A DNA stretch of 24,000 nucleotides from contig CAVZHT010000001.1 of NCBI GenBank assembly GCA_963775175.1, positions 2,434,940 through 2,458,939 on the forward strand, given 5' to 3'. Below the pieces are notes generated by a model that saw nothing but the letters and a program-made list of their open reading frames with translations, had not been told where the DNA came from and searched no databases. The first letter of the stretch is position 1. Each line of letters starts with the position of its first letter. Positions 1 through 18,667 of the stretch are shown here, piece by piece. The stretch comes from an uncultured Actinomycetota bacterium. GTDB taxonomy: Bacteria; Actinomycetota; Actinomycetes; Mycobacteriales; Jatrophihabitantaceae. Both the position numbers and the translations under genes were made by a program.

Positions 1-18
1 GGTGCCTGGTTGGAGCCG

Positions 19-300
19 ATGGCCGACAACGGGGCCGAGCTCGTCGTCACCATCGGCGGTGAGGTCGACATCTCCAGCGTCGCGCCCCTGCGTGCGGCGC
101 TGGACGAGATCCTCGACCGGCAACCAACCAAGGTGATCTTCGAACTGCGCGACCTGCGCTTCATGGACAGCTCGGGCATCGCGTTGCTGATCACCGCCGC
201 CCAGCGGGTCGGCCGGGTCGAGCTGCACCACCCTTCGGCCATGGTGCGCCGGGTCATCGAACTGGCCGGCCTGGCCTCGACGCTGCCGATGACGCAATGA
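19..300 (+). CDS. STAS-domain anti-sigma-factor antagonist (SpoIIAA/RsbV-like)
   Basis: This is the tracked ORF 10..300. The translation 'ELVVTIGGEVDISSVAPLRAAL...LRFMDSSGIALL' fits the STAS pattern, including the phosphorylatable Ser of the 'DSSG' motif. GGAG at 12-15 precedes ATG19; TTG10 is an alternative start. The stop overlaps the next start (ATGA at 297-300). The gene lies at the window edge, so an upstream start cannot be excluded. Confidence 0.8.
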   Translation: MADNGAELVVTIGGEVDISSVAPLRAALDEILDRQPTKVIFELRDLRFMDSSGIALLITAAQRVGRVELHHPSAMVRRVIELAGLASTLPMTQ

Positions 301-689
301 GCTCCGACCGGACCTGGCCCGGCGAGCCGCGGTCGGTCGCCGCGGCCCGGCGCTTCGTCACCGAAACCCTGGCCGGGCTGAGCCAGGAGGTGCTCGACGT
401 CCTCGTCCTGATGGTGTCCGAGCTGGCGACCAACTCGGTCGTGCACGCCCACAGCCCGTTCCGGGTCCGGGTCGAGCGGGGGCCGCGGGCGGTGCGCATC
501 GAGGTGCACGACCACGACAGCGGACGGATCGAGATCGCCCACGCCGCGCCCGAGGATCTGCACGGCCGCGGGCTGTCGATGGTCGACGTGCTCTCCGACG
601 ACTGGGGCGTCACCCGCTCGGCCGACGAATCCGGCAAGACCGTGTGGTTCACCCTGAACCTGCCCGAAGGCGTGCCGGCGCTGGCTTAG
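297..689 (+). CDS. Anti-sigma regulatory factor, HATPase-type Ser kinase (RsbW/SpoIIAB-like)
   Basis: 130 aa. It has an N-box-like 'ELATNSVVHA' and a G-box-like 'HGRGLSMV'. The size and 'WF' C-terminus are typical of RsbW-like kinases. It is translationally coupled to the STAS gene through the ATGA overlap. Confidence 0.8.
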   Translation: MSSDRTWPGEPRSVAAARRFVTETLAGLSQEVLDVLVLMVSELATNSVVHAHSPFRVRVERGPRAVRIEVHDHDSGRIEIAHAAPEDLHGRGLSMVDVLSDDWGVTRSADESGKTVWFTLNLPEGVPALA

Positions 690-706: not shown

Positions 707-3049
707 TCAGCGGTGCGCGGCCAGCGGCGTCGGCTGCGGGCCGTAGGCGGTCAGGAACCGGTCGCGGAAGCTGTCCATCGGCCACACCGGGGCCTTCGCG
801 CCCGGCAGCAGCCCGTCCGGCCAGCCCCACGCCGCGATCCGGTCCATGACCGACGGGTCGGCGCTGATCACGCTGATCGGCACGTCGTGGCTCGCCTGCG
901 TCCCGCTCACGATCGTGGCCGGCTGATGATCGCCGAGCACCACCAGCACCAGGTTCTTGTCGTGGAACGTCGTCACGAACGACACCAGCGTGCTGAGCGT
1001 GTACCGGATCGACTGCCCGTACGCCGCCTGCACATCGCTCGCGTGCTGCCACACCTCCTGCGGGGTGCGGCCCTGCTCGGGCATGCCCTCGAAGATCGTC
1101 CCGTCGCCGACGGCGTTCCAATCGACCGGGTGCGGCAGCGGCGCCCACGGCGTGTGCGACGAGACGAGGTCGATCTCGGCCATCACCGGGCGGTGGTGCG
1201 GCGCCGCGAGCTCGCGCTGCCGGAACGCCGACAGCACGTACTGGTCGGGCATCGCGGCGTAGCTGAACGACGGGCCGCGGTAGCCGACGTTGCGCCGGTC
1301 GTAGATCTTGTCGTAGTGGTAGAACGACCGGCCGACCGCCCAGTCCCGGTAGTTCGACGGCACGTCGTCGACCGTCCGCCACCCCGCCCGCTGGAACGCG
1401 CGGCTCAGCGTGAAGTGGTCGCCCTCGACGAGCTTGTCGTAGCGCTGCTGGCTGCTGATCCACAGCCCCGACTGCAGGGTGGAGTGCGCCAGCCAGCTGA
1501 TACCGCCGAACGTCGGTGACGTGAGGAACGCGCTGCGGGACGCGAAGCCGGCGGCCGCGAGGCTGCGGGTGCCGGACCTGAGCACGTCGTCCACCTGCGG
1601 CGAGAACGACGAACCCTGCACGGCCACCCTGCCGTAGCTCTCGACGAACGCCACGATGACGTCCTTGCCCCGCAGCCCGGTGAGCAGGTCGCTTCCCGGC
1701 TCCTGCGCGAACCGGTCGCCGGCCGAGAGCGCGTGGGAGAACCGGTGCTCGTCGGCGATCGCGGACCGGACGGCGTGGATCTGGTCGTAGGCCAGGCCGG
1801 CCGCGCTGGTGGAGGCGACCGGTGCCCCGGCGACGATCTGCACGCCGGAGACGGCGCAGACCACCCAGACCGCACCGAGCGCGCCGAGCGCCCGCAGCGA
1901 TCCGCGCCGGTGCCTGGCGGCGACCCGGCTCAGCCGCAGCATCGACAGCGGGACGAGGACGACGACGGCGATGCCGGCGAGCACCGCGGCGAGCTCGGCC
2001 ACGACGGCCCACCCCGGCCCGACCGAGTCGCGCAGCACGCCGGCCGCAGGCCCGAACGACCCCCAGTCCGACACCGGGTTGAACGGCCGGCCGAGCTGGT
2101 TGTAGAAGCCCACATCGAGGACCTTGACGACCCCCACCATCCCGAGCAGCAGCCCGACGAGCACCGCGAAGCCCGACCGCAGTCTCGTCGGCAGCACGAG
2201 GCCGGTGACGAGCACGACGAGGCCCTCGACCGGCACCCGGAGGAAGGCGCCCGGCGTCAGCTGTTCGAGGTGGTTCGGCGCCACCAGGGCGGCCCACACG
2301 AGCAGGAAGGCGAGGCCGGTGAGCACGAGAGGCAACGTCGACCGGTCCACGACGTCCTGGCCGCGGTGCCGCAGCCAGAGCCACCGCACGTCGTTTCCGA
2401 ACGACTCGGCGAGCAGCGCGAGCGCGGCGGCCACCGCCAGCACGATCAGCGGACCGGGCAGCAAGCCCGCCGCCGCCACGGTGAGCACGACCCCCTGGAT
2501 CGCCGCCACGACCTTGCACCAGTAGCGCGGCGGGGTCGGCTCGCGCAGCCACGACCATCGGCGGCCGGCCAGCCCGAACAGGTAGCGGGCCGCCCCGATC
2601 GCCAGCACCCACGGGCCCAGCAGCCGGGCGACGTACCCGCTGAGCACGAGGATCAGGAACGCGTCGACCTCCATGTCGAAGCGCGCCCCGTGCGGGGTGA
2701 CGGTGCCGGTGCGCCGCGCGATCCAGCCGTCCACCGCATCGAGGAGGAGCGCGGCGGAGGCCAGGGCGACCAGCGCGGCCACGGAGATGGACCGGTCCAG
2801 GGAGTCGGCGACCAGCGCGGCCACGCCGGCGGCGAGGTTGGCCCGGGCCAGCGTGACCCGGTCGGCCGGCCCGAACGCCGCGACGCCCGGCCGGGCGAAC
2901 GCGTACCGCACGACCGCGTTGACCCCGGCTGCCGCGACCGCGCCGGCGATCCAGCCCGCCGGCCCGAGCCCGACCGTCACCGCCAGCGCGGCGAGCAGCG
3001 TGATCGCGGCGGTCAGGCCCGCGACCGGGCCGGTTCGAACCGTCAGCAC
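707..3049 (-). CDS. Fusion protein: N-terminal CDP-alcohol phosphatidyltransferase, polytopic membrane linker, C-terminal LtaS/MdoB-type (sulfatase/alkaline-phosphatase superfamily) domain
   Basis: This is the C-terminal 780 codons of the tracked 1128-aa minus ORF. I place the start at GTG 3049, preceded by GGAGG with a 5-nt spacer. The CDP-OH transferase motif 'DGWIARRTGTVTPHGARFDMEVD' (DGxxAR..G...D...D) is present. Multiple hydrophobic helices follow. The C-terminal domain carries 'VIVAFVESYG', 'TSPTFGGISW' and 'VVLGDHQP', typical of LtaS/phosphoglycerol-transferase-like domains. The ORF part upstream of 3049 is antisense to the MDR gene and Arg/Pro/Gly-rich, so I excluded it. Confidence 0.8.
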   Translation of the reverse strand: MLTVRTGPVAGLTAAITLLAALAVTVGLGPAGWIAGAVAAAGVNAVVRYAFARPGVAAFGPADRVTLARANLAAGVAALVADSLDRSISVAALVALASAALLLDAVDGWIARRTGTVTPHGARFDMEVDAFLILVLSGYVARLLGPWVLAIGAARYLFGLAGRRWSWLREPTPPRYWCKVVAAIQGVVLTVAAAGLLPGPLIVLAVAAALALLAESFGNDVRWLWLRHRGQDVVDRSTLPLVLTGLAFLLVWAALVAPNHLEQLTPGAFLRVPVEGLVVLVTGLVLPTRLRSGFAVLVGLLLGMVGVVKVLDVGFYNQLGRPFNPVSDWGSFGPAAGVLRDSVGPGWAVVAELAAVLAGIAVVVLVPLSMLRLSRVAARHRRGSLRALGALGAVWVVCAVSGVQIVAGAPVASTSAAGLAYDQIHAVRSAIADEHRFSHALSAGDRFAQEPGSDLLTGLRGKDVIVAFVESYGRVAVQGSSFSPQVDDVLRSGTRSLAAAGFASRSAFLTSPTFGGISWLAHSTLQSGLWISSQQRYDKLVEGDHFTLSRAFQRAGWRTVDDVPSNYRDWAVGRSFYHYDKIYDRRNVGYRGPSFSYAAMPDQYVLSAFRQRELAAPHHRPVMAEIDLVSSHTPWAPLPHPVDWNAVGDGTIFEGMPEQGRTPQEVWQHASDVQAAYGQSIRYTLSTLVSFVTTFHDKNLVLVVLGDHQPATIVSGTQASHDVPISVISADPSVMDRIAAWGWPDGLLPGAKAPVWPMDSFRDRFLTAYGPQPTPLAAHR

Positions 3050-3127
3050 CCTTGCCTCCGTGTCTATGAGGTACAGGATTGGTACGGCGTGCACGAGCAC
3101 GCGGTTCAGCGAGAGGTCCGGACGGCG
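3050..3127. promoter_or_regulatory. Divergent promoter/operator spacer between the fusion gene and the MDR-led operon
   Basis: The 78-bp gap between the divergent start codons contains the least GC-rich stretch of this neighbourhood ('tgtctatgaggtacaggattggtacgg'). A direct GGTAC repeat sits at 3070-3074 and 3081-3085, 11 bp apart. I could not assign -10 or -35 elements with confidence. Confidence 0.35.
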
Positions 3128-4117
3128 ATGACGGCGGTGCGGCGAGAGGCCCGGGCGTTCTGGGTGCAGGCACCCGGTGCGGGTGAGATCCGGCCCGCGA
3201 CCCTCGCGCCGCCCGGCCCGGACGACGTCGTCGTCCGCACCCTGCACTCCGGCATCAGCCGCGGCACGGAGACGCTGGTGTTCCAAGGGCGCGTGCCGAA
3301 GGACCAGTACGCCGCGATGCGGGCGCCGTTCCAGGAGGGCGAGCTGCCCGGGCCGGTGAAATACGGCTACCTCAACGTCGGCGTGGTGGAGCACGGGCCG
3401 CGCCACCTGCAGGACCGCACCGTCTTCTGCCTGTACCCGCACCAGACGGCCTACGTGGTGCCGGCCCGGGCGGTGATCCCGGTGCCGGACGGCGTGCCGG
3501 CGTCGCGGGCCGTGCTCGCCGGGACGGTGGAGACGGCGGTCAACGCGCTGTGGGACGCCGCGCCGCTCGTCGGTGATCGGATCACCGTCGTCGGGGCCGG
3601 CATGGTCGGCTGCTGTGTCGCCCGGCTGCTCGCGCGGTACCCCGCCGTCGAGGTGACCCTCGTCGACATCGACGCCGGCCGGGCCGAGATCGCCGCGCAG
3701 CTGGGCGTCGGGTTCGCCCGGCCGGAGGACGCCACCGGCGAGCGCGACCTCGTCGTGCACACCAGCGCCACGTCGGCCGGGCTGCAGCTGGCGCTCGACC
3801 TGCTCGCGCCGGAGGGCACGGTCCTCGACCTCAGCTGGTACGGCGACGCCGACGTGACGCTGTCGCTGGGCGGCGCCTTCCACTCCCGGCGCCTCGGCAT
3901 CCGGTCCAGCCAGGTCGGGAAGGTCGCGCCCGCCCGCCGGGCCAACCGGACGACGACCGACCGGCTGGCCCTGGCCCTCGAGCTGCTGCGCGATCCGGCG
4001 TTCGACGCGCTGCTGACCGGCGCGTCGCCGTTCGAGGAGCTGCCCGACGTGCTGCCCCGCCTCGCCGACGGCCGCCGCCCGGCGCTGTGCCACAGCGTCA
4101 CCTACGGCGAGGGGTGA
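3128..4117 (+). CDS. MDR-superfamily (zinc-ADH-like) NAD(P)-dependent oxidoreductase, apparently lacking the catalytic-zinc Cys/His ligands
   Basis: ATG 3128 is in frame with the tracked ORF 1733..4117; only this 3' part has coding-like composition. A GroES-like N-terminus reads '[15 protein letters not shown]' where classical enzymes have 'CGxCxSDxH'. The Rossmann motif is '[15 protein letters not shown]'. Confidence 0.8.
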
Positions 4118-4122
4118 CCGGC

Positions 4123-4520
4123 ATGTTCAGCGTGACCGTCCGCGACCACATGATGATCGCCCACAGCTTCCGCGGCGAGGTCTTCGGCCCGGCCCAGCGG
4201 CTGCACGGCGCGACCTACGTCGTGGACGCGACCTTCCGTCGCGCCGATCTCGACGCCGACGGCATCGTGGTCGACATCGGCCGGGCCGCCGACCAGCTGC
4301 ACGCCGTGCTCGGCGAGCTGACCTACCGCAACCTCGACGACGAAGCGGCGTTCGCCGGCAGCAACACCTCGACCGAGGCCTGGCCCGGGTGATCGCCGAC
4401 CGGCTCGCCGGCCGCATCCACGCCGGCGCCCTCGGCGACGGCGCCGCGAGATCGCTGGCTCTCGCCGTCACGCTGCACGAGTCGCACATCGCCTGGGCGA
4501 GTTACGAGCGGACACTGTGA
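4123..4520 (+). pseudogene. 6-pyruvoyl-tetrahydropterin synthase (PTPS/QueD)-family gene interrupted by a 1-nt deletion-type frameshift (or sequencing error)
   Basis: Frame 1 (4123-4392) gives '[38 protein letters not shown]...NTSTEAWPG*'. The family C-terminus '[13 protein letters not shown]...[19 protein letters not shown]' continues in the -1 frame (4389-4520). Adding one C at the CC run 4379-4380 would give '...[15 protein letters not shown]...', which restores the conserved T-x-E-x-L-A-x-x-I pattern of the family. Confidence 0.7.
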
Positions 4521-5555
4521 ACCGCGTCCACGTGGTCGTGCCGGACGGCATCGACGACCCGCGCCGGCCGAGCGGCGGCAACGCCTACGACCGCCGGGTC
4601 TGCGCCGGGCTGACCGCCGCCGGGTGGGACGTGCGGGAGCACGGCATCCCGGGGGCGTGGCCGCATGCCGGAAGCCGCCGCGAACGCGGCCCTCGCTGTT
4701 GCCGTCGCGGCCGTTCCCGACCGGGCGACGGTCCTGGTCGACGGGCTGGTCGCGTCGGCGGCGCCGGCCGTGCTCGTCCCCCAGGCGGCGCGGCTCCGGC
4801 TGGTGGTCCTGGTGCACATGCCCCTCGACACCGGCGAGCCGGAACGGGCCGTCCTCTCCGCGGCGGCCGCGGTGATCACCACGAGCGCCTGGACGCGGCA
4901 GTGGCTGGTCGATCGCTACGGGCTCGCGCCGGGCACCGTGCACGTGGCCGTGCCCGGCACCGACCCGGCCGGCCTCGCCGCCGGGACCCCGACCGGGGGC
5001 GCGCTGCTCTGCGTCGGGGCGGTGAGCCCGCACAAGGGCCATGACGTGCTGGTCGCCGCGCTGGGCGCGCTGGTCGGCCGGCCGTGGCGCTGTGCCGTCG
5101 TCGGCCCGCTCGACCGCGACGTCGGCTTCGTCGCCCGGCTCCGATGCCGGGCCGTGGCCGACGGCATCGGCGCACGGATCGACTTCACCGGCTCGCGATC
5201 GGATGCCGACCTCGACCGCGCCTACGCGTCGGCCGACGTGCTCGTCCTCGCTTCGCGGGCCGAGACCTACGGCATGGTCATCACCGAGGCGCTGGCCCGC
5301 GGGCTGCCGGTGCTCGCCACCGCGGTCGGTGGCGTGCCCGAGGCGCTGGGGCGCACCGCGGACGGCCGGCGGCCGGGCATCCTCGTCCCGCCCGACGACC
5401 CCGGCGCCCTGGCCGGCGCGGTCGGCCGCTGGCTCGGCCAGGCCGACCTGCGCCACCGGTTGCGGCGCGCGGCCCGCGATCGGCGAGCGGCACTGACCGG
5501 CTGGCCCGTCACCACCGGCCGCGTCGAACGGGTCCTGAGCGGGGTGGCGGCGTGA
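4517..5555 (+). pseudogene. GT-B/GT4-type glycosyltransferase interrupted by a +1 frameshift near 4655-4667 (or sequencing error)
   Basis: GTG 4517 overlaps the PTPS-like stop (GTGA). The first ~49 codons ('[49 protein letters not shown]') have high GC3. After ~4664 GC3 collapses in that frame. Coding signal resumes in the tracked ORF 4665..5555 ('MPEAAANAAL...GRSRAETYGMVITEALARGLPVLATAVGGVPE', a GT1/GT4 C-terminal E-x7-E-like region). Removing one nucleotide (for example C4664) joins the halves as '...GAWPMPEAAANAAL...'. Confidence 0.7.
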
Positions 5556-6529
5556 CCGTCACCCTCGAGCGGCCGCCGGTCGACGCGACCCCGGCGGCGG
5601 ACCGGCCGCGGCGTCGGTGGCTTCTCGGGCTGCGCTGGGCCGGCGGGGCGGCGATCCTTTCCGCGCTGGTCTGGCGGGTCGGCACCGGGCCGATCGTCGA
5701 CGGGCTGCGGACGGTCAGCGTCGGCTCGCTGCTGGCCGCCGCGGCGATCGGCGCCGTCACCACCGCCGCCTCGGCGTGGCGGTGGACCCTCGTCGCCCGC
5801 GGCCTCGGCGTCGCCATCCCGTGGCCGGCCGCGTTCGCCGCCTACTACCGGTCGCAGTTCCTCAACACGACCTTGCCGGGCGGGGTGCTCGGCGACGTCC
5901 ACCGGGGGGTTCGGCACGGGCGCGCGGCCGGCGACGTCGGGCGGGGCCTGCGTGCGGTCGGCTGGGAGCGCGCGGCCGGGCAGGTCGTGCAGGCCGCGCT
6001 CGCGGTCGTGGTGCTGCTGGCGATGGCCTCGCCGGTCCGGGCGGCGATGCCGCTCGTCCTGGTGATCGTCACCGCCGCAGCCCTGCTGGTGGCCCGCGGC
6101 GCCCGGGCGCGGCCCCGGCCCGGCGGCTCACTGCTCGGGCGGACGCTGCGGGCGATCCGGGACGACCTCCGGCACGGGGTCCTCGCCCGGCGCACGTGGC
6201 CCGGCGTCACCGGCGCGTCGATCGTCGTCGTCGGCGGGCACGCGCTCACCTTCCTGGTCGCCGCCCGCACCGCCGGCTCGACCGGGTCGCTGGCCCAGTT
6301 GCTGCCCCTGGCGATGCTGGTGCTGCTGGCGATGAGCGTGCCGGCGAACGTCGGCGGCTGGGGGCCGCGGGAGGGCGCGGCGGCCTGGCTGTTCGCCGCC
6401 TCCGGCCTGGGCGCCGGGGCCGGGGTGGCGACGGCCACCGTGTACGGCGTGCTCGTGCTCGTCGCCAGCCTGCCCGGTGCGGCGGTGCTCGTGTGGCCCG
6501 ACCGGACCCGGGGGGCCGGCGATGGTTGA
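5552..6529 (+). CDS. Flippase-like / lysylphosphatidylglycerol-synthase-TM-region family (UPF0104-type) integral membrane protein
   Basis: GTG 5552 overlaps the GT stop (GTGA) and is in frame with the tracked ORF 5084..6529. The protein is polytopic and hydrophobic, with 'RWTLVARGLG...YYRSQFLNTTLPGGVLGDVHR' and 'NVGGWGPREGAAAW', characteristic of this family. Confidence 0.75.
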   Translation: MTVTLERPPVDATPAADRPRRRWLLGLRWAGGAAILSALVWRVGTGPIVDGLRTVSVGSLLAAAAIGAVTTAASAWRWTLVARGLGVAIPWPAAFAAYYRSQFLNTTLPGGVLGDVHRGVRHGRAAGDVGRGLRAVGWERAAGQVVQAALAVVVLLAMASPVRAAMPLVLVIVTAAALLVARGARARPRPGGSLLGRTLRAIRDDLRHGVLARRTWPGVTGASIVVVGGHALTFLVAARTAGSTGSLAQLLPLAMLVLLAMSVPANVGGWGPREGAAAWLFAASGLGAGAGVATATVYGVLVLVASLPGAAVLVWPDRTRGAGDG

Positions 6530-7232
6530 GCGCCCCTACACGGTGCTGAGCTGCGGCATGTCGATCGACGGCTATCTCGACTGCACCTCGGTGAAGCGGC
6601 TGCGGCTCTCGAACGACGCCGACTTCGACCGGGTCGATGCGGTGCGCGCGACCTGCGACGCGATCTTCGTCGGGGCGGCCACCGTCCGCAACGACAACCC
6701 GCGCCTGCTCGTCCGCTCGGCCGCCCGGCGGCAGCGGCGCGTCGCCCGGGGCCTGCGCCCGTCACCGATCAAGGTGACGGTGACCGGCCGGGCCGAACTC
6801 GACGCGCAGGCCGCCTTCTTCGTCACCGGCGACACCGAGAAGCTGGTGTACTGCGAGAGCTCGAAGCTCGCCGAGGCCCGCGACCGCCTGGGCACCGTCG
6901 CGACCGTCGTCGACGGCGGCCGGCCCGTCGAGATGACGGCGATCACCGAGGACCTGCGGGCCCGCGGCGTCGAGCGGTTGATGGTCGAGGGCGGCGGTTC
7001 GCTGCACACCCAGTTCCTCACCGCCGACCTCGCCGACGAGCTGCATCTCGTCGTCGCCCCGTTCTTCGTCGGCGACTCCCGGGCCCGCCGCTTCGTCGAC
7101 GACGGCCGCTTCCCGTGGAACCCGCGGCGGCGGGCGACGCTGGCCGGGGTCCGGCAGATCGGCGACGTCGTCCTGCTGCGCTACGCGCTGTCGGCGCGGT
7201 TCTGCCCGGACGAGTTGTGGGAGCAGGCGTGA
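6522..7232 (+). CDS. RibD C-terminal-domain / dihydrofolate-reductase-like NADPH-dependent reductase
   Basis: ATG 6522 overlaps the upstream stop by 8 nt (ATGGTTGA). The translation 'PYTVLSCGMSIDGYL...DAIFVGAATVRNDNPRL...LMVEGGGSLHTQFL...DELHLVVAPFFVG' matches the RibD_C pattern. Confidence 0.8.
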   Translation: MVERPYTVLSCGMSIDGYLDCTSVKRLRLSNDADFDRVDAVRATCDAIFVGAATVRNDNPRLLVRSAARRQRRVARGLRPSPIKVTVTGRAELDAQAAFFVTGDTEKLVYCESSKLAEARDRLGTVATVVDGGRPVEMTAITEDLRARGVERLMVEGGGSLHTQFLTADLADELHLVVAPFFVGDSRARRFVDDGRFPWNPRRRATLAGVRQIGDVVLLRYALSARFCPDELWEQA

Positions 7233-7254
7233 CACCCGGCCGCGAGCTGGGCCG

Positions 7255-7728
7255 CTAACCGACCCGCAGCCGCGGCGGGGCCGGCTGCCCGTCGGCGTCG
7301 CGTCGTGCGGTCTCGGCCCAGGCGATGAGGCCGTCGACGTCGATGCCGTGGGGCGCCGACTCGCGGTAGGGGAGCACCCGCTCGACGGCCCGGGTGAGCA
7401 GGGCGCGGGCGCCGGCCGGGTTGCCGCGCAGCGCGTGCGTGAGGCCGACCGCGAGCTGGGCCAGGCCCTGCCACAGATCCCGCTCCCCGGCCGGCGCGCC
7501 CTTCCAGGCCGCCTCCAGCACCTCGTGGGCCTGGAACGGGAAGCCCTCGTCGAGCAGCCGCTGGGCCTCGGTCAGGGTGTCGTCCGGGCCGAGGTCGAGG
7601 GCCTCCGGCACGCCGGGCACGCCGGCCGCGCCCGGGGCGAGCGGGCGGCCGAGGGCGTCCCGCGGGCGGGCGTTGCGCGGCCGCCCCCGCGCGTCCCGAT
7701 CCCGATCCGCGTCCGTCACGGCGATCAT
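7255..7728 (-). CDS. DUF309-family protein
   Basis: I chose the internal ATG (7728) of the tracked ORF 7255..7908. The translation 'RDARGRPRNARPRDALGRPL...EAQRLLDEGFPFQAHEVLEAAWK...LWQGLAQLAVGLTHALRGNPAGA' is the typical DUF309 pattern. The ORF upstream of 7728 overlaps the neighbouring divergent gene. Confidence 0.75.
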   Translation of the reverse strand: MIAVTDADRDRDARGRPRNARPRDALGRPLAPGAAGVPGVPEALDLGPDDTLTEAQRLLDEGFPFQAHEVLEAAWKGAPAGERDLWQGLAQLAVGLTHALRGNPAGARALLTRAVERVLPYRESAPHGIDVDGLIAWAETARRDADGQPAPPRLRVG

Positions 7729-7765
7729 TCTCCGCCTTGAACGCCCCGGCAGGGATGATGGACCG

Positions 7766-8998
7766 ATGGCGGACACGCGGCGGGGGCGCCGGCTCGTCTC
7801 GATGCTGACCGGCCTGCTCGCGGCCGTCCTGCTCGTCGCCGGCTGCAGGTCGTCATCGCGGCCCACATCGAACCGGGCGCCCTCGACGCCGCGGACGACC
7901 GCGTCCACGTCGTCGCGCCCGGCCGCGGCGCTGCCCTCGGCGCGCCCGGTGGCGGTCGCGCCACTACGCCGCGGCGAACGGTGGGTGAGCCTGCCGATGC
8001 CGGGTGGCAGCTACCGGCCGCAGGCCCCGGCCGGCGGCACGGACGACTACCGCTGCATCCTGCTCGACCCGAAGCTGACCACCGATGCGTTCCTGTCCGG
8101 CGTGGTGCTGCGCCCCGGCAACCCGAAGCTCGTCCACCACGCGATCCTGTACCGCGTCGACCCGGCCCAGGTGGCGGCGGCGCGGGCGAAGGACGCCGCC
8201 GACCCCCGGCTCGGCTGGTCGTGCTTCGGCGGCCCGGAGCTGCCGAGCACCGGCGGGGTACTCGGTGGCCTCGACTCGGCGCCGTGGGTGGCGGCCTGGG
8301 CGACCACCGGCGGCGAGCAGCACTTCGCCGCCGGCACCGGGCAGCGGCTGGCCGCCGGCAGCCGGGTGATCCTGCAGATGCACTACAACCTGCTCAACGG
8401 CGGCGGCACCGACAGCACGTCGGTCGCGTTGCGGGTTGCCCGCACCGGTGTCGGGCTGAAGCCGCTGCAGACGCTGCTGCTCCCGGCGCCGGTCGAGCTG
8501 CCCTGCCCGGCCAGCCAGCACGGCCCGCTCTGCGACCGGACGGCCGCCGTCCTGGACGTCGAGCGGCGGTTCGGGGTCGACGCCGGCGCGACGATCGGCG
8601 GCCTGCAACTGCTCTGCGGCGGCTCGCTGACCCATCCGCGGGCCGGGGTCACGCAGTCGTGCCGCCGGCCGGTGCCCGGTCGGATGGTCATCCGGGCGGT
8701 GGCCGGGCACATGCACCTGCTCGGGCGCAGCATCCGGATCGACCTGCTGCGGGCCGACGGCACCGATCGCCGGCTGCTCACCGTCCCCGTTTGGGACTTC
8801 GACGACCAGCGGGCGACCGTGCTCGCGAAGCCGGTCACCGCCCGGCCCGGAGACGCGCTGCGGGTCACCTGCACGCACGACGCCACGCTGCGCGAGAAGC
8901 TGCCGGAACTGCGCAAGCTGGCGCCCCGTTACGTCGTGTGGGGTGAGGGCTCGTCGGACGAGATGTGCCTCGGGATCGTCACCTACACGCTGACCTGA
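7766..8998 (+). CDS. Copper type-II monooxygenase (PHM/DBH-like) lipoprotein
   Basis: ATG 7766 is in frame with the tracked ORF 7394..8998. The signal peptide has the lipobox 'LLVAGC' (Cys codon 7844-7846). All ligands of the two Cu sites are present: CuH 'LVHHAILY' (8135-8140) plus 'LQMHYN', and CuM 'GHMHLLG' (8708-8716) plus 'SSDEMCLG' (Met 8963-8965). Confidence 0.8.
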   Translation: MADTRRGRRLVSMLTGLLAAVLLVAGCRSSSRPTSNRAPSTPRTTASTSSRPAAALPSARPVAVAPLRRGERWVSLPMPGGSYRPQAPAGGTDDYRCILLDPKLTTDAFLSGVVLRPGNPKLVHHAILYRVDPAQVAAARAKDAADPRLGWSCFGGPELPSTGGVLGGLDSAPWVAAWATTGGEQHFAAGTGQRLAAGSRVILQMHYNLLNGGGTDSTSVALRVARTGVGLKPLQTLLLPAPVELPCPASQHGPLCDRTAAVLDVERRFGVDAGATIGGLQLLCGGSLTHPRAGVTQSCRRPVPGRMVIRAVAGHMHLLGRSIRIDLLRADGTDRRLLTVPVWDFDDQRATVLAKPVTARPGDALRVTCTHDATLREKLPELRKLAPRYVVWGEGSSDEMCLGIVTYTLT

Positions 8999-9019
8999 GT
9001 GCCGCGCGAACTTGAGAGC

Positions 9020-9039
9020 TGGGGCACAGGCTCGCCCCA
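9020..9039 (+). terminator. Possible stem-loop after the monooxygenase gene
   Basis: TGGGGC (9020-9025) pairs with GCCCCA (9034-9039) across an 8-nt loop, followed by 'tacggtcggttt'. The U-tract is weak, so this may only be a processing or attenuation structure. Confidence 0.25.
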
Positions 9040-9078
9040 TACGGTCGGTTTGACGATCACGCGGGCAAGGAGCAGTGC

Positions 9079-10170
9079 ATGGCGAACTCGACGCGCCGAC
9101 CGCCGACGAAGCGAGCGCCGGCCCGGCCGTCCGCGCCGCCCGCCCCCGAGCGGCGCCCCGTCCCGCCCGCGCTCGCCGCGCTGCAGCGGGACCCGCGCTG
9201 GATCCTGCTGCCGCTGCGGGCCTACCTCGGGTTCACGTTCCTCTACGCCGGGTTGTCCAAGGTCGGTGGCCACAGCTTCCTGGACGCCTCGTCGCCCACG
9301 TCGATGCACGCCACGCTGGTGGCGGTGCGCGGGCAGAGCCCGATCGGCGGGCTGCTCGGCCCGGTCGAGCAGCACTCGTACGCGTTCGGTCTGCTCATGG
9401 CCCTCGGCGAGCTGGCCGTCGGCATCGGCACCGCGCTCGGACTGTTCGCCCGGGTCGCGGCCACCGGCGGAGCCCTGATCTCGCTATCGCTCTTCCTGAC
9501 GGTGAGCTGGAACGCGACGCCGTGGTACACCGGCGCCGACATCGTCTACCTCTTCGCGTTCACGCCGATCCTGCTCGGCGGCGCCGGCCCGGTCTCGGCC
9601 GACGGCTGGCTGGCCCAGCAGCGGGCGCGCAGCACCGGCCGTGACGCGGTTGCCGAGGACCGCACCCGCCGGGCCGTCCTCGGCGGCATCGCCGGCATCG
9701 CCGGCCTGCTGGCCTTCGCGGTGGCCAGCCTGGTGCGCAAGGGAACGGGCGGGAGCCCGAGCGTCCAGGCCGGCGGCAACCAGACGGGCAGCGGGCCGAC
9801 CGGCGGGGCGCCGGCCGCGAGCGCGCCCGCCCCGAGCGGGTCGACGACCCCGGCGCGCGCGGCCACCGGCGGCAAGCCGATCATCGCCGCCGCCGCCGTC
9901 CCGGTCGGCGGCGCGGCCCCGGCCACGGATCCCAAGAACGGCGACCAGATCTTCGTCCTGCAGCTGAACGCCGGCGAGTTCACCGCGCTGGACAGCGCCT
10001 GCCCGCACCAGGGCTGCCCGGTCAGCTTCATCTCGAAGTCGCAGGGCTTCGTCTGCCCCTGCCACGGCTCGACCTTCGACGCCACCGGCGCGGTGACCCA
10101 GGGCCCGGCCGCGACCGGGCTGGCCAAGATCCCGGTCGCGAAGTCGGGCAGCGAGATCGTCCGGAAGTGA
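9079..10170 (+). CDS. DoxX-family membrane domain fused to a C-terminal Rieske [2Fe-2S] domain
   Basis: AAGGAG lies 6 nt before ATG 9079. The N-terminal 'LLPLRAYLGFTFLYAGLSK' plus four hydrophobic helices is DoxX-like. An internal twin-arginine-like anchor 'RTRRAVLGGIAGIAGLLAFAVA' (about 9661-9726) follows, then a Gly/Pro/Ala/Ser linker. The Rieske motifs 'CPHQGC' and 'CPCHGS' come at the C-terminus. Confidence 0.85.
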   Translation: MANSTRRPPTKRAPARPSAPPAPERRPVPPALAALQRDPRWILLPLRAYLGFTFLYAGLSKVGGHSFLDASSPTSMHATLVAVRGQSPIGGLLGPVEQHSYAFGLLMALGELAVGIGTALGLFARVAATGGALISLSLFLTVSWNATPWYTGADIVYLFAFTPILLGGAGPVSADGWLAQQRARSTGRDAVAEDRTRRAVLGGIAGIAGLLAFAVASLVRKGTGGSPSVQAGGNQTGSGPTGGAPAASAPAPSGSTTPARAATGGKPIIAAAAVPVGGAAPATDPKNGDQIFVLQLNAGEFTALDSACPHQGCPVSFISKSQGFVCPCHGSTFDATGAVTQGPAATGLAKIPVAKSGSEIVRK

Positions 10171-10786: not shown

Positions 10787-12076
10787 GTGTCCCGTCCCCG
10801 CCGTCGCAAGATCCTCGTTCTGGGCCTCGCGGCCGCCGCGATCGCGTGGCTGGTCGGCTCTGGGGCCGGAGCCGCGTCCGCCTCCGCGCACCCCCATCGC
10901 AGCCATACGCTCGTCGTCGCGGCCGGGGCGAGCACCACCAGCCACACCGCCGACCGCGGAAACCGCCACTCCTGCCGGCACGCCGGCTTCACCACCATCG
11001 GTGCCGCAGTGGCCGCGGCGTCGCCCGGCGACACCGTGCTGGTCTGTCCGGGCACCTACGCCGAGGACGTGCTCGTCGGCAAGAGCCTGCACCTCGTCGG
11101 CCGGCACGCGACGATCGACGCGACCGGGCGGGAGAACGCCCTGCAGATCGTCACGTCGTGGGTCTCGGTCAGCGGCTTCCGCCTCGCCAACGCGAACGGG
11201 GAGGGGCTGCTCGTCGGCGTCGACACCCTCGGCGACGCCGGGCTGCTGACCTCGCAGGTCCTCACCCACGTGCGGGTCGACCACGTTGCGGCCGTCGACA
11301 ACAACAAGGGCTTCAACGGCACCGAGAACAGCAACTGCAAGTACCCGGGCGACTGCGGCGGCGGCATCCACCTGCAGGTCACCAAGTGGTCGTCGGTGCG
11401 TGACTCGGTCGTGGTCGGCAACTCCGACGGCATCCTGGTGACCGACGACTACGGGCCGGCCTCGCACAACCTGGTCGAAGGCAACTACGTCAGCGACAAC
11501 ACGACCGAGTGCGGCATCGTCCTGCCGTCCCACAACCCCGGTGCGGTCACCTTCGACCCGCAGACCTTCGCGGTGACCGGGCGCAACCCGGACGTCGGCG
11601 GCGTCTTCGACAACGTCGTCAAGCACAACATCACGGTGCGCAACGGCACCGCGAAGGCCCCGCCCGAGTTCGGCGGCGGCGGCAGCGGCTCCGGCATCGG
11701 GATCTTCGGGTCGGGTCCGGGCACCGGCGCCTACGACAACGTGGTCGAGGACAACTACGCCGCAGGCAACGGCCTGGCCGGGTTCACCATCCACGCGCAC
11801 CTGCCCGGCGGCGAGGACGTCAACGGCAACCGGATCGTCGGCAACCTGTTCGGCACCAACAACACCGGCGGGGACGGCTACGACGGGCCGCCGGGGCCGA
11901 TCGACTTCCAGACGACCGGCATCGCCGTGTACTCGGCGCCGACGGTCCGGATGACCATCGAACACAACCGCATCTTCGACAACGAGATCGGGATCTGGTT
12001 GAGCAACACCGTCACCGCGCACGGGCTGAACCACAACCGGTTCTTCCACGTGACGACCCGGGTCGTTCGCGGCTGA
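10787..12076 (+). CDS. Secreted right-handed parallel beta-helix repeat protein (pectin-lyase-fold/NosD-like)
   Basis: GGAGGGA lies 6 nt before GTG 10787, in frame with the tracked ORF 10670..12076. The signal peptide is 'RRRKILVLGLAAAAIAWLVGSGAGAASASA'. Repeated 'N..(V/I).(G/D)N' beta-helix rungs are visible ('VVGNSDGILV', 'VEGNYVSDN', 'VVKHNITVRNG', 'VEDNYAAGNG', 'IVGNLFGTNN', 'IEHNRIFDNEIGIW'). Confidence 0.8.
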   Translation: MSRPRRRKILVLGLAAAAIAWLVGSGAGAASASAHPHRSHTLVVAAGASTTSHTADRGNRHSCRHAGFTTIGAAVAAASPGDTVLVCPGTYAEDVLVGKSLHLVGRHATIDATGRENALQIVTSWVSVSGFRLANANGEGLLVGVDTLGDAGLLTSQVLTHVRVDHVAAVDNNKGFNGTENSNCKYPGDCGGGIHLQVTKWSSVRDSVVVGNSDGILVTDDYGPASHNLVEGNYVSDNTTECGIVLPSHNPGAVTFDPQTFAVTGRNPDVGGVFDNVVKHNITVRNGTAKAPPEFGGGGSGSGIGIFGSGPGTGAYDNVVEDNYAAGNGLAGFTIHAHLPGGEDVNGNRIVGNLFGTNNTGGDGYDGPPGPIDFQTTGIAVYSAPTVRMTIEHNRIFDNEIGIWLSNTVTAHGLNHNRFFHVTTRVVRG

Positions 12077-12110
12077 CCGAGTGCCGCCGCGCTTCGCTAC
12101 CGTGGGGGTA

Positions 12111-12995
12111 ATGCGAGCGCGGAGACGGACCGGCGGCCGGCCGGGGGACGCCGGCCGCCGGTCCATCGGCACCTTCGTCGCCGTCGACGTGCCCGGGTTC
12201 CGCGGTCGCGTGCACGTGCGCGAGGACGGCCCGACGACCGCGCCGCCGCTGGTGATGCTGCACGGCTTCAGCGGCTCGCTGCACTGGTTCGACCGGGTCG
12301 TGCCGCTGCTCGCCGACCGGTTCCGGCTCGTCCGCATTGACCTGCTCGCGCACGGGTCGACCGGGGGCCCGGCCCTCGACGCGCCCGGCCAGGCCCGCGC
12401 CGTCGACGCCGTGCTCGCCGAGCTCGACGTCCGCGGCGCCACCGCGGTCGGCCACTCGTTCGGGGCCGATGTCGCGGTCGAGCTGGCCGAGCGGTCGGCC
12501 CGGATCGCGCGGCTCGTGATCGTGACCCAGGCGCCCGACTACTCGGACGCGACGCTGCCGCGCGGCAGCGTCCTGATGACCGTGCCCGTGCTCGGGCCGA
12601 TCCTCGGGGGCGTGCTCCAGCTGCTCGCCGCGACCCTCGGCGCCCTGGTCGTGCGGCGCCGCGCCGCCGCCCCCGGCGGCGAGCTCGCCGTGCAGGGGCT
12701 GCACGACTTCCGCGCCCTCGACCTCGCCATGTTCCGGGTCGTGCTGGTCGACCGGCGCGACCGCATGCAGGCCCGCCCGCTCGACGCGCAGGTCCGCGAC
12801 ACCGCGAAACCGACACTCGTCATCCTCGGCGAGCGGGACCACTTCTACGGCGCCCGCTCGGCGGCGCGCTACCGGGACGCCGGGGCCGAGGTGCGGGTGC
12901 TCGAGGACTCCGGGCACTCGCCGCTCGTCGAACTGCCCGGGCCGGCCGCCGGCCTGATCGGCGAGTTCGCCTGCGGCGCGCTGTCCGATTCGTGA
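12111..12995 (+). CDS. Alpha/beta-fold hydrolase
   Basis: It has the oxyanion-region 'LVMLHGFSGS', the nucleophile elbow 'GHSFG' and the C-terminal catalytic His context 'DSGHSPLVE'. I chose ATG 12111; the tracked ORF starts at GTG 12081. Confidence 0.8.
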   Translation: MRARRRTGGRPGDAGRRSIGTFVAVDVPGFRGRVHVREDGPTTAPPLVMLHGFSGSLHWFDRVVPLLADRFRLVRIDLLAHGSTGGPALDAPGQARAVDAVLAELDVRGATAVGHSFGADVAVELAERSARIARLVIVTQAPDYSDATLPRGSVLMTVPVLGPILGGVLQLLAATLGALVVRRRAAAPGGELAVQGLHDFRALDLAMFRVVLVDRRDRMQARPLDAQVRDTAKPTLVILGERDHFYGARSAARYRDAGAEVRVLEDSGHSPLVELPGPAAGLIGEFACGALSDS

Positions 12996-14685: not shown

Positions 14686-15540
14686 ATGGCGCTCGAGAAA
14701 CTCGGCCCCATCGGTATCTGGGCTCGCTACTCAGCACTGACCCCTGAGCTCGCGCAGGAGCTGGAACGCCTTGGCTATTCGGCCCTCTGGCTGGGCGCTT
14801 CCCCCGCCGCCGGGCTCGATGTGGTCGACCCGCTGCTCGCCGCCACGGAGCGGATGATCGTGGGCACCAGCATCGTCAACGTGTGGACGGCCGATGCGCG
14901 GCAGGTGGCCGAGTCGTTCCACCGCCTGGAGGCGGCCCACCCGGGTCGATTCATCCTGGGCGTCGGGGCCGGACATCGCGAGAGTGACGCTGACTACCGC
15001 AAGCCCTACGACGCGCTGGTCGCCTATCTCGACGAACTGGACCGCAGCGAAGTACCGGTCCAGCAGCGAGCCTTGGCCGCCCTCGGCCCGCGCATGCTGG
15101 AGCTGGCCGGCCGCCGCACCGCCGGCGCGCTGCCCTACCTCGTCACCCCGGCCCACACGCGCGCGGCGCGGGCGCAACTCGGCCCGGCTGCGCTGCTGGT
15201 CGCCGAGCAGAAGGTCGTGCTGGACGCGGACGTCGAACGCGCGCGTACCACCGGTCGCGCTCGCGTGGGCCCCTATCTCCGACTGTCCAACTACGTTGCC
15301 AACCTGCGGCGTATCGGCTTCGAGGACGACGACGTGGCGTTCCCCGGCAGTGATCGGCTGGTGGACGCGCTCGCCGTCCACGGGGACGCGTCCGCGGTCG
15401 CCGATGGCGTGCGAGCGCACCTGGAATCGGGCGCCGATCACGTCGACGTCCAGGTGCTGAGCGCGGACACGGACATCCGGCCCACCGCCCGCGCCCTGGC
15501 CGGCGAACTTCGAAGAATGTCGCCCCCGCCGCAGGCCTGA
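14686..15540 (+). CDS. Luciferase-like monooxygenase (LLM) class oxidoreductase, probably F420-dependent
   Basis: The features 'LGPIGIW...ELERLGYSALWLG', 'FILGVGAGH', 'GALPYLVTPAHT' and 'LAVHGDASAVADGVRAHLESGADHV' are typical of the short actinobacterial LLM/F420 subgroup. Confidence 0.8.
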   Translation: MALEKLGPIGIWARYSALTPELAQELERLGYSALWLGASPAAGLDVVDPLLAATERMIVGTSIVNVWTADARQVAESFHRLEAAHPGRFILGVGAGHRESDADYRKPYDALVAYLDELDRSEVPVQQRALAALGPRMLELAGRRTAGALPYLVTPAHTRAARAQLGPAALLVAEQKVVLDADVERARTTGRARVGPYLRLSNYVANLRRIGFEDDDVAFPGSDRLVDALAVHGDASAVADGVRAHLESGADHVDVQVLSADTDIRPTARALAGELRRMSPPPQA

Positions 15541-15575
15541 TGTGGCAACATCAGTGGTCGACCGTTCGAGTCGGA

Positions 15576-15619
15576 AGGAGGTGCGACGTCCCGTGTCGAT
15601 GACCGTTTCCGCGCCTCCT
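15576..15619 (+). promoter_or_regulatory. Stem-loop pairing a strong SD-like AGGAGG with a downstream CCTCCT
   Basis: AGGAGGTGCG (15576-15585) pairs with CGCGCCTCCT (15610-15619). This gives 10 bp, including one G-U pair, around a 24-nt loop that holds GTG 15593 and ATG 15599 of a 10-12-codon ORF ending at TGA 15629-15631. Confidence 0.3.
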
Positions 15620-15677
15620 GGCCTCGGCTGACGACCGATCAGCTCGCCCGGCGGCGCCGCCTGTGAGAGGTGGCCTC

Positions 15678-16298
15678 GTGGCCGTAGACAATCAACTCCA
15701 GCTCGACCGACTCGCCCGCTCGTTCGCCGCCGTGGGCGACTTGATCGACGCGATCCAACCCGGCCAGTGGTGCGCGCCGACGCCATGCCTGGACTGGACC
15801 GTGCAGCGGCTCGTCGAGCACCTGGTCGGCAAGAATCTCGTGTTCACTGCGGTGCTCGCCGAGCGTCCGCTGCCGCAGCGCGGTGACGGCATGCCGAGCG
15901 ACCAACTCGCCCCCGCCTACCGCGCATCGGCCGCCGAACTGCTCGACGGGTTCGCGCAGCCCGGCGTTCTCGATCGCGTCCACCAGGGCCCGCTCGGGGC
16001 CGCCACCGGCGCCGAACGGTTGAAGATCCGCAGGTACGACCTGCTGGGCCACGGCTGGGACCTCGCTCAGGCTCTCGGGCGACCGGCAAAGCTGCCGGAG
16101 GACGCGGTGACGGATTCGCTGGCCTTCGCCCGCGCGGATGGGCGGGCGGTACGGCCCGGCGGCGGGTGCTTCGGCCCGCCCCGGCCCATCGACGACGCCG
16201 CCCCGGCCATCGAGCGGCTGGCCGCGTTCCTGGGCCGCGACGTGCCGGCCAACCGGACGATCAGACTAGCTCGAGGTCGCGGACCCCGAGCTCGGTGA
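15678..16298 (+). CDS. DinB-like / mycothiol-maleylpyruvate-isomerase N-terminal-domain family protein (actinobacterial uncharacterised subgroup)
   Basis: The pattern 'W..PTPC.DWTV..L..HL' is visible in 'QWCAPTPCLDWTVQRLVEHLVG', and the C-terminal region reads 'DLLGHGWDLAQALG'. I prefer GTG 15678 because of the upstream GAGAGGTGG; the tracked start is 15663. The last ~12 codons have poor GC3 because they overlap the convergent activase gene. Confidence 0.75.
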   Translation: MAVDNQLQLDRLARSFAAVGDLIDAIQPGQWCAPTPCLDWTVQRLVEHLVGKNLVFTAVLAERPLPQRGDGMPSDQLAPAYRASAAELLDGFAQPGVLDRVHQGPLGAATGAERLKIRRYDLLGHGWDLAQALGRPAKLPEDAVTDSLAFARADGRAVRPGGGCFGPPRPIDDAAPAIERLAAFLGRDVPANRTIRLARGRGPRAR

Positions 16299-18514: not shown

Positions 18515-18667
18515 CTCAGGCTAGGCACCGGCGACCGGGCCGGTAGGGCCCAAGGTCCAGGCGAAACCGGGCCGGGCCGAGATGCTCATCCGCGCCGTTC
18601 CCCTGCCGATACCTGAATTGCGGGCCTCGTGCGGGGTGCCCGCTTCGTGCCGATGGAGGGAGCGCGC
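18515..18667. promoter_or_regulatory. Divergent promoter region between the glycyl-radical operon and the c-di-GMP gene
   Basis: This is a 153-bp non-coding gap between divergent starts. I did not recognise an operator; no FNR/CRP-like TTGAT-N4-ATCAA site was seen. Confidence 0.35.

Follow-up and report, generated by a model that had tools for sequence, protein, structure and literature searches.

A conserved actinobacterial gene cluster joining an SCO6650-type PTPS-IV protein to a glycosyltransferase and to phospholipid and LtaS-like membrane enzymes

What might be made by a gene cluster in which enzymes resembling those of pterin and riboflavin synthesis stand beside a glycosyltransferase and membrane proteins of lipid metabolism? 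Such a cluster occupies part of a 24-kb stretch of DNA from an uncultured Actinomycetota bacterium (24,000 nucleotides of contig CAVZHT010000001.1, hereafter the window), where a gene fusing a CDP-alcohol phosphatidyltransferase to an LtaS-like domain diverges from five genes for an MDR-fold oxidoreductase, a PTPS-IV protein, a GT4 glycosyltransferase, a flippase-like membrane protein and a RibD_C reductase (Table 1). A first-pass annotation, made from the letters alone, had proposed that enzymes acting on a small molecule, a glycosyltransferase and membrane proteins that handle lipids are joined here in one unit, and the family assignments reported below support this composition. Our analysis supports the six genes being one functional unit that co-occurs across many actinobacterial genera. 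It also leads us to propose, with about even chances of being right, that the operon builds a GTP-derived glycosylated head group which is delivered to the cell envelope. The product itself could be a glycosylated pteridine, the head group of a lipid or a substituent of the envelope.

The evidence for a functional unit comes from its conservation. One genome per species was scanned with an alignment of the PTPS protein, which gave at least 592 confirmed relatives; the best 80 of these loci were searched with the window proteins, and the counts given here are from the 67 loci with enough flanking DNA. The best 80 loci are all from Actinomycetota, including Micromonospora, Streptomyces, Pseudonocardia, Actinomadura, Nocardioidaceae, Solirubrobacterales, Thermoleophilia and Gaiellales. 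The MDR, PTPS and GT4 genes are contiguous and in fixed order in all 67, with the MDR gene directly upstream and the GT4 gene directly downstream of the PTPS gene, whereas the other genes shuffle around this trio on either strand; the divergent layout of the window is found in about 27 of them. An invariant trio with mobile partner genes is the pattern that selection for co-inheritance produces. The adjacency of the six genes is far beyond chance, an explanation ruled out over the 67 loci. The six families do co-occur elsewhere, the check that the first-pass annotation had suggested, but the order that it gave is fixed only for MDR-PTPS-GT4 and not for the rest.

A class I S-adenosylmethionine (SAM) methyltransferase of about 270-300 aa lies between the GT4 and flippase-like genes in about 48 of the 67 loci (for example L004 11460-12284 and L010 about 11530-12254). 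Neither this gene nor one for GTP cyclohydrolase II (GCH II) was found in the 24-kb window. The methyltransferase is likewise missing from about ten other loci, and the window represents a shorter form of the cluster which is also present in L001, L017, L022, L038 and L047. One metagenome-assembled genome (MAG), MFD04463.bin.2.227 (loci L006 and L043), holds the MDR-PTPS-GT4 core twice, each time beside other genes: divergent RibD_C and GCH II genes accompany one copy, CDP-alcohol/LtaS-like and flippase-like genes the other.

Table 1. Features of the cluster in the window, and number of related loci (among the 67 with enough flanking DNA) in which each gene or domain is present
Feature	Position	Strand	Remarks	Related loci
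CDP-alcohol phosphatidyltransferase::LtaS-like fusion	707..3049	-	780 aa, GTG start at 3049	
Fusion C-terminal module: five transmembrane helices and extracytoplasmic LtaS/alkaline-phosphatase-superfamily (AlkP) domain	707-2266	-	predicted fold	47/67
Fusion N-terminal module: CDP-alcohol phosphatidyltransferase	about 2267-3049	-	PF01066	58/67
Divergent spacer	3050..3127		78 bp	
MDR-fold NAD(P) oxidoreductase	3128..4117	+	329 aa, predicted fold	67/67
PTPS-IV, SCO6650-type T-fold protein	4123..4520	+	132 aa once corrected; frameshifted	67/67
GT4 (GT-B) glycosyltransferase	4517..5555	+	about 345 aa once corrected; frameshifted	67/67
LPG_synthase_TM / flippase-like polytopic membrane protein	5552..6529	+	325 aa	66/67
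RibD_C NADPH reductase, archaeal/fungal Rib7 type	6522..7232	+	236 aa; stop 7230-7232	55/67 (close RibD_C), 7 more with distant RibD_C
GTP cyclohydrolase II				51/67

Since the window has a G+C content of about 75%, reading frames were fixed by third-position GC (GC3) and homology, and the frame of each of the six genes (707-7232) is backed by GC3 frame plots. The layout first described was confirmed by reading the sequence: besides the 78-bp spacer, there is a 5-nt gap between the MDR gene and the PTPS start at 4123, and there are GTGA overlaps at 4517-4520 (PTPS/GT4) and 5552-5555 (GT4/flippase-like gene) and a ATGGTTGA overlap at 6522-6529 (flippase-like gene/RibD_C). Each of the two transcription units presumably has its promoter in the spacer; no sigma-70-type consensus was found there, and scanning for promoters and terminators gave nothing. 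Searches with profile hidden Markov models recovered the families CDP-OH_P_transf, PTPS, Glycos_transf_1, LPG_synthase_TM and RibD_C that had been suggested. The MDR and LtaS-like parts have no such profile support, and their assignments, resting on predicted fold, are weaker than the first-pass annotation had claimed.

By sequence comparison, the PTPS-like protein is an ortholog of Streptomyces coelicolor SCO6650 (PDB 3D7J), with which it aligns end to end (residues 1-132 of the corrected protein on 21-152 of 3d7j_A, E = 1.3e-59). The corrected protein scores 79.3 bits against Pfam PTPS and does not reach the QueD equivalog (TIGR03367, 35.8 bits against a cut-off of 89.25). It carries the sequence FGPAQ, which is the signature that replaces the Cys...HGH catalytic/zinc motif in the PTPS-IV subfamily of COG0720 (PMC5445326, PMC5041015). 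The upstream Cys is absent and HGA stands instead of HGH; the 'LHGAT' pointed out in the first-pass annotation is read directly from the sequence. A canonical QueD or PTPS-I, -II or -III enzyme was rejected, as the CxxxHGH, CxxxxxHGH or ExxHGH motif is absent and the score too low. The structure paper on SCO6650, from 2008, reportedly found zinc, catalytic triad and PTPS activity to be absent and the pterin-binding residues to be kept. Unexpectedly, the subfamily also occurs in eukaryotes: the haptophyte algae Emiliania huxleyi, Gephyrocapsa oceanica and Prymnesium have proteins (P0249, P0267, P0277, P0297, P0322, P0379) in which three PTPS-IV-like domains stand in tandem, with 45-48% identity to the protein of the window.

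The published genomic neighbourhood of PTPS-IV consists of PF00925 (GCH II) and PF01872 (RibD_C) (PMC5445326). The window contains the second of these, and the first, absent from its 24 kb, is adjacent in 51 of the 67 related loci. The RibD_C protein of the window is a stand-alone reductase, the deaminase domain being absent, and scores 130.7 bits with Pfam RibD_C. Its best family is TIGR01508 (archaeal diaminopyrimidinone-ribosyl reductase, 135.4 bits, under the cut-off of 186.45) and its best PDB matches are 5xux, 6p8c (2,5-diamino-6-ribosylamino-4(3H)-pyrimidinone 5'-phosphate reductase) and 2azn; by sequence it thus appears closest to archaeal Rib7-type reductases. The GCH II proteins of the related clusters keep the three zinc cysteines, and the position of E. 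coli Y105 is occupied by Tyr (44 proteins), Met (6) or His (3), with all six Met variants in Streptomyces. Spoonamore et al. reportedly found in 2006 that Met at this position is the switch by which SCO6655, the GCH II paralog of S. coelicolor, comes to release a formamidopyrimidine, and we take the Met of the Streptomyces cluster enzymes to match that of formamidopyrimidine-forming SCO6655.

The first-pass annotation had drawn attention to substrates of the dihydroneopterin triphosphate type. The neighbours of the PTPS-IV gene (GCH II, Rib7-type RibD_C and, in Alphaproteobacteria, a hydrolase of the creatininase/ArfB family) point instead to a ribitylaminopyrimidine, and dihydroneopterin triphosphate is probably not the entry to the pathway. 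Because GCH II, an ArfB-family hydrolase and a Rib7-like reductase together mirror the early archaeal/fungal route to riboflavin or F420, we take 2,5-diamino-6-ribitylaminopyrimidinone 5'-phosphate, or its N5-formyl form, as the candidate committed intermediate. The likeness to that route is embodied in the window by the stand-alone reductase, to which the relatives add the dedicated GCH II and, in Alphaproteobacteria, the creatininase-family hydrolase. The differences are that the cluster has no genes for a deaminase, lumazine synthase, riboflavin synthase or FO synthase, that scores are below cut-off (TIGR01508 as above; ArfB 32 against 180), and that its genes are locked to a glycosyltransferase and membrane enzymes. 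A housekeeping riboflavin operon was rejected, there being no deaminase, RibB, RibH or RibE, and scores being under cut-offs.

The soluble genes might alternatively supply 5-amino-6-ribitylaminouracil in the archaeal manner for riboflavin or F420 (FO), with PTPS-IV filling the missing pyrimidine deaminase or a related step and the glycosyltransferase and membrane genes forming an unrelated unit. This would accord with the ArfA/B/C logic mirrored by GCH II, the creatininase/ArfB-like protein and the Rib7-like reductase, with an F420-dependent LLM oxidoreductase encoded in the window at 14686-15540 (TIGR03620, 356 bits), and with the statement that PTPS-IV is 'involved in F420 synthesis', for which unpublished data are cited (PMC5041015). 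PTPS-IV is, however, flanked by the MDR and GT4 genes without exception among the 67 loci, and it is translationally coupled to them; genes for FO synthase, lumazine synthase or CofC/D/E are missing from the neighbourhoods listed, and RibD_C scores under its equivalog cut-off. We consider such a supply role quite unlikely.

The two enzymes flanking PTPS-IV give further indications of the chemistry. The MDR protein is under every Pfam and NCBIfam cut-off (ADH_zinc_N 21.5 bits against 31.8; BchC, TIGR01202, 49.7 bits). Its AlphaFold2 (AF2) model (pLDDT 74) resembles threonine, idonate, xylitol and sorbitol dehydrogenases in Foldseek searches (TM ~0.7, E ~1e-16), from which membership of the MDR superfamily, with GroES-like and Rossmann domains, is predicted. 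Zinc-dependent MDR enzymes have the motifs GICGxDxH and GHExxG, where the window protein has GISRGTE and KYGYLNVG. The lack of catalytic-zinc ligands (Cys, His, Glu/Cys) noted in the first-pass annotation is thereby confirmed, and the replacing residues S44, Y79 and Y81 are invariant among homologs. More than 8000 homologs of the MDR protein were found, the best about 80% identical. The PTPS-like and the MDR-like protein are both non-canonical. The GT4 protein matches Pfam Glycos_transf_1 with 107 bits (threshold 26.4) and reaches no NCBIfam equivalog, EpsE (87 bits) and MshA (73.6 against 462) both being sub-threshold; MshA glycosylates a polyol phosphate. An anti-phage role of the 'GT4-conflict' type was rejected, as this match is weaker than that with Glycos_transf_1 and the context is not defence-related.

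What would connect this soluble chemistry to the envelope is the divergent fusion gene. Its N-terminal module matches PF01066 (CDP-OH_P_transf) with 40.9 bits over aa 65-208 (threshold 22), and the CDP-alcohol catalytic motif, defined as D(x)2DG(x)2AR(x)7-9G(x)3D(x)3D, is intact at aa 104-129 as DAVDGWIARRTGTVTPHGARFDMEVD. The PgsA, PssA and PIP/AIP synthase equivalogs are not reached by this module (best 21-23 bits, cut-offs 107-240). For the C-terminal module there was no Pfam match even at E = 10 and no PDB sequence match, and the LtaS-like assignment was made from predicted structure because these in-frame searches gave nothing; some homologs of this module have a precomputed match to PF00884 (Sulfatase). 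The AF2 model of the C-terminal 519 residues (pLDDT 84) has five long helices (13-140) followed by an alpha/beta domain, and the top Foldseek matches are LtaP, LtaS, GacH, EptC and MCR-1 (E from 1e-9 to 1e-5), so that an LtaS-like architecture of five transmembrane helices and an AlkP fold is predicted. In this 519-aa fragment, residues E209, S250, T252, H371, D446 and H447 do not vary among 63 homologs; the invariant E, S/T, H and D-H follow in the order expected for a metal and nucleophile site, and by this order they are candidates for such a site. A public protein, P0121, is identical to the fusion protein. The two halves are encoded by separate genes in L002, which argues that the parts work together and that their fusion is not accidental. 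The flippase-like protein matches PF03706 (LPG_synthase_TM) with 96.3 bits (threshold 33.4) over aa 31-309 of 325, and TIGR00374 (flippase-like domain) with a sub-threshold 22.9 bits.

Five transmembrane helices with an extracytoplasmic alkaline-phosphatase-superfamily domain are the common architecture of LtaS/LtaP, GacH, OpgB/MdoB and EptA/MCR-1. LtaS, GacH and OpgB transfer a head group with glycerol phosphate, and the head-group donor of EptA/MCR-1 is phosphatidylethanolamine. In the systems for lipoteichoic acid and glucan substitution, too, a CDP-alcohol phosphatidyltransferase supplies the donor lipid, PgsA leading to phosphatidylglycerol for LtaS/LtaP. The window protein differs from LtaS systems in that the transferase is fused to the lipid-synthesising enzyme, that sequence similarity to LtaS is undetectable, and that the proposed head group is not glycerol phosphate. 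Similarly, PF03706 extends over the whole flippase-like protein, as in the flippase domain of MprF and in HpnL-type proteins, and like these it accompanies a lipid-linked pathway; unlike MprF it has no aminoacyl-transferase domain, and its flippase role is predicted.

The cluster can be compared with SCO6648-SCO6655 of S. coelicolor, which includes both SCO6650 and SCO6655. Streptomyces loci present the same series of genes, CDP-OH, MDR, PTPS, GT4, (methyltransferase) and LPG_TM, followed by RibD_C and GCH II. The window differs from them in having a Rib7-type RibD_C where Streptomyces has a distant one, and an LtaS-like domain fused to the CDP-alcohol transferase; in Streptomyces, a search over 10 kb gave no such domain. 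The window also lacks the methyltransferase and an adjacent GCH II, and has two frameshifts.

More distant PTPS-IV proteins (about 61% identical) are encoded in Pseudolabrys-type Alphaproteobacteria and in another Gram-negative context (L085 323-11923; L086; L087 7890-16679; L088 7079-14337; L083 7170-12163). The series MDR-PTPS-GT4-methyltransferase is intact in these Gram-negative loci, with identities between window and alphaproteobacterial proteins of 55% for MDR and 41% for GT4; the methyltransferases of the actinobacterial and alphaproteobacterial clusters are 34% identical. After this core come a RibD_C of eubacterial type, a long GCH II (376 aa, extended at its N-terminus), the creatininase-family hydrolase and a conserved protein of 478-480 aa. 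The hydrolase shares its family with ArfB, the archaeal deformylase, but MftE is a better match than ArfB. The divergent position is occupied in Alphaproteobacteria by an OpgH/MdoH-family GT2 glucan synthase (NF003958, 499 bits against a cut-off of 419), and in L085 a separate Sulfatase/LtaS-like membrane protein is encoded nearby. With the pairing of the soluble module and an OpgH-family synthase, and the nearby Sulfatase/LtaS-like protein, the module is again linked to envelope chemistry, in line with the glucan systems considered above. The soluble core is constant; its membrane partner is lineage-specific, yet always an envelope enzyme.

These variants bear on a second alternative, according to which the product is a soluble pteridine or ribityl-pyrimidine glycoside (cofactor, pigment or protectant) and the membrane proteins only export or anchor it, with no phospholipid head-group cycle. 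It would explain why the module shared across phyla consists of MDR-PTPS-GT4(-methyltransferase), RibD_C and GCH II, while Actinomycetota, Streptomyces and Alphaproteobacteria each combine it with other membrane proteins. The formal sequence of cyclohydrolase, T-fold enzyme, reductase and GT-B glycosyltransferase also parallels the formation of biopterin glucoside in Cyanobacteria, where GCH I, PTPS, sepiapterin reductase and a pteridine glycosyltransferase follow a similar enzyme logic. The cluster differs from the cyanobacterial pathway by a cyclohydrolase of type II instead of I, a T-fold protein without the CxxxHGH/HGH site, an MDR instead of an SDR enzyme, and the extra ribosyl reductase and membrane enzymes. 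A membrane enzyme is, however, divergent beside the MDR gene in every lineage examined, and an intact CDP-alcohol motif together with a fused or adjacent LtaS-like domain with conserved catalytic residues is hard to explain by export alone. A purely soluble glycoside therefore seems to us unlikely, and the strongest argument for a head-group cycle is the fusion of a lipid-making with a head-group-transferring enzyme.

Starting from gene content, folds, catalytic motifs, SCO6650 orthology and the conserved neighbourhood, we infer each chemical step of the envelope pathway, the order of the steps and the acceptor as follows. A dedicated GCH II, encoded beside the operon in most relatives, would open GTP to give 2,5-diamino- or 5-formamido-6-ribosylaminopyrimidinone 5'-phosphate, whose ribosyl chain would be converted to a ribityl (polyol) chain by the Rib7-type RibD_C. 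The ribitylaminopyrimidine may then be remodelled by two zinc-less proteins, PTPS-IV, taken as a T-fold protein that binds 2-amino-4-oxopyrimidine rings, and the MDR protein, which resembles polyol dehydrogenases, possibly through side-chain oxidation and ring closure to a pteridine-like compound. One may speculate that the C2' hydroxyl of the ribityl chain is oxidised and that ring closure onto the 5-amino group yields a dihydropterin. The GT4 enzyme would add a sugar and, in most relatives, the SAM methyltransferase a methyl group. At the cytoplasmic face, the CDP-alcohol phosphatidyltransferase would couple the product to CDP-diacylglycerol; the MprF-flippase-like protein would then flip the new phospholipid, and the LtaS-like ectodomain would move the phospho-head group onto an extracytoplasmic acceptor, in parallel to the path from PgsA through phosphatidylglycerol to LtaS/OpgB. 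In its most specific form, this proposal describes a phospholipid with a glycosylated GTP-derived ribitylaminopyrimidine or pteridine head group, with which, after flipping, an LtaS-like transferase would decorate a polymer outside the cell (the OpgH-made glucan in Alphaproteobacteria), an idea that we hold tentatively and that is, on balance, doubtful.

Several observations weigh against the envelope pathway. The window lacks GCH II and the methyltransferase, so that entry from GTP is deduced from other genomes. PTPS-IV has no demonstrated activity, and the F420 remark mentioned above would place it in cofactor synthesis and not at the envelope. For the CDP-alcohol transferase, donors besides CDP-diacylglycerol are conceivable. 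The alphaproteobacterial clusters have neither the CDP-alcohol transferase nor the flippase-like gene, and those of Streptomyces have, within 10 kb, no LtaS-like domain, besides a different RibD_C, so that not every lineage would have the membrane steps. A literature search on SCO6648-6655 and on the family combinations gave neither a product nor an intermediate or phenotype of the cluster; a characterised product of a homologous cluster would have contradicted the first-pass annotation. Finally, two frameshifts mean that the window copy may make nothing.

These frameshifts affect the PTPS and GT4 genes, two of the five on the plus strand. The first-pass annotation mentioned neither them nor the lack of the methyltransferase and cyclohydrolase genes that most relatives have. 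In the PTPS gene, frame 1 ends at TGA 4390-4392 and the last 46 codons lie in another frame, to TGA 4518-4520; tblastn with intact orthologs puts the lesion, the loss of 1 nt, at about 4379/4380, within the codon for Ala87. Nine metagenome relatives that have an intact frame and share the flanking DNA read GCG here, with one extra base. An exact-pattern scan of metagenomes gave no second copy of the deletion; the nine relatives, all intact, were retrieved with a shorter pattern. In the GT4 gene, the uncorrected frame from 4517 stops at 5044, and the tblastn match with the L001 and L002 orthologs splits between WP and PE, owing to one inserted nucleotide: 4664-4667 has 4 nt for what is a single codon in the homologs. 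The two lesions, 290 bp apart in adjacent genes, are the only frameshifts detected in the 24-kb window. Programmed frameshifting was rejected, since the shifts lie in different genes and each leads to an early stop.

The copy is thus either mis-assembled, which we prefer, or recently inactivated. If the frameshifts are real, the cluster would be decaying in this genome and its product no longer made, a reading compatible with any of those above. The proximity of both lesions in neighbouring genes, with none detected elsewhere in the 24 kb, would fit such decay, as would the location of the 4664-4667 insertion outside any homopolymer; no independent contig with the same sequence was found for comparison. 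Against decay, none of the remaining four genes is shortened; their GC3 is about 0.95, they are 60-80% identical to their orthologs and they appear to be fully under selection, and both shifted segments still encode conserved protein. Moreover, the closest relatives derive from long-read MAG projects, and related long-read contigs have similarly split genes: the MDR gene of L088 is in two pieces (8494-9987, 205 + 268 aa) and the GT2 gene of L087 in three (6848-8930). Frameshift errors therefore seem common in such assemblies, and a pseudogene cluster is a serious but lesser possibility.

The surroundings of the cluster in the window are varied. A STAS-domain protein followed by an anti-sigma-type kinase (HATPase_c_2), a partner-switching pair, is encoded at 1-689 (+), directly downstream of the 3' end of the fusion gene and on the opposite strand. 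At the other end, a small DUF309 gene (7255-7640, -) is convergent on the end of RibD_C and overlaps a long plus-strand open reading frame at 7394-8998. This frame probably starts later than 7394, because its copper type II monooxygenase-like domains begin only about 240 codons in; next to it, at 9079-10170, comes a DoxD/DoxX::Rieske fusion. The F420-dependent oxidoreductase of family TIGR03620 and a mycothiol-type DinB-family protein (TIGR03086) are encoded at 14686-16298 (+), where GC3 is slightly under that of neighbouring genes; the two proteins are signs of F420 and mycothiol use by the host. The stretch 16261-18520 (-) encodes a YjjI-like glycyl-radical enzyme (652 bits) and its radical-SAM activase, a pair usually associated with anaerobic metabolism and here present in a high-GC actinobacterium. 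They are followed at 18617-22096 (+) by a 1159-aa signalling protein with a LacI-type periplasmic-binding-protein fold and PAS, GGDEF and EAL domains.

The cluster family is already in the literature through SCO6650, SCO6655 and the PTPS-IV neighbourhood. We have not found described before the constant link to GT4 and MDR, the CDP-alcohol-transferase::LtaS-like fusion, or the OpgH-linked variant of Alphaproteobacteria. SCO6650 and SCO6655, the latter an altered GTP cyclohydrolase II, were reportedly studied almost twenty years ago without a pathway emerging. Both are now placed in an operon of at least 592 species of soil Actinomycetota, with an alphaproteobacterial variant, of which the window is itself one further member, possibly broken. 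In this operon, early chemistry like that of riboflavin synthesis is combined with phospholipid enzymes and envelope enzymes of the LtaS type. If the proposal is true, it would give a physiological role to the long-orphan PTPS-IV and to the SCO6655-type cyclohydrolase, and it offers a way, open to testing, towards what may be a new class of lipid head groups or of wall substituents. Since the antigens of mucosal-associated invariant T (MAIT) cells derive from ribityl-pyrimidines, a surface-exposed derivative would be of wider interest.

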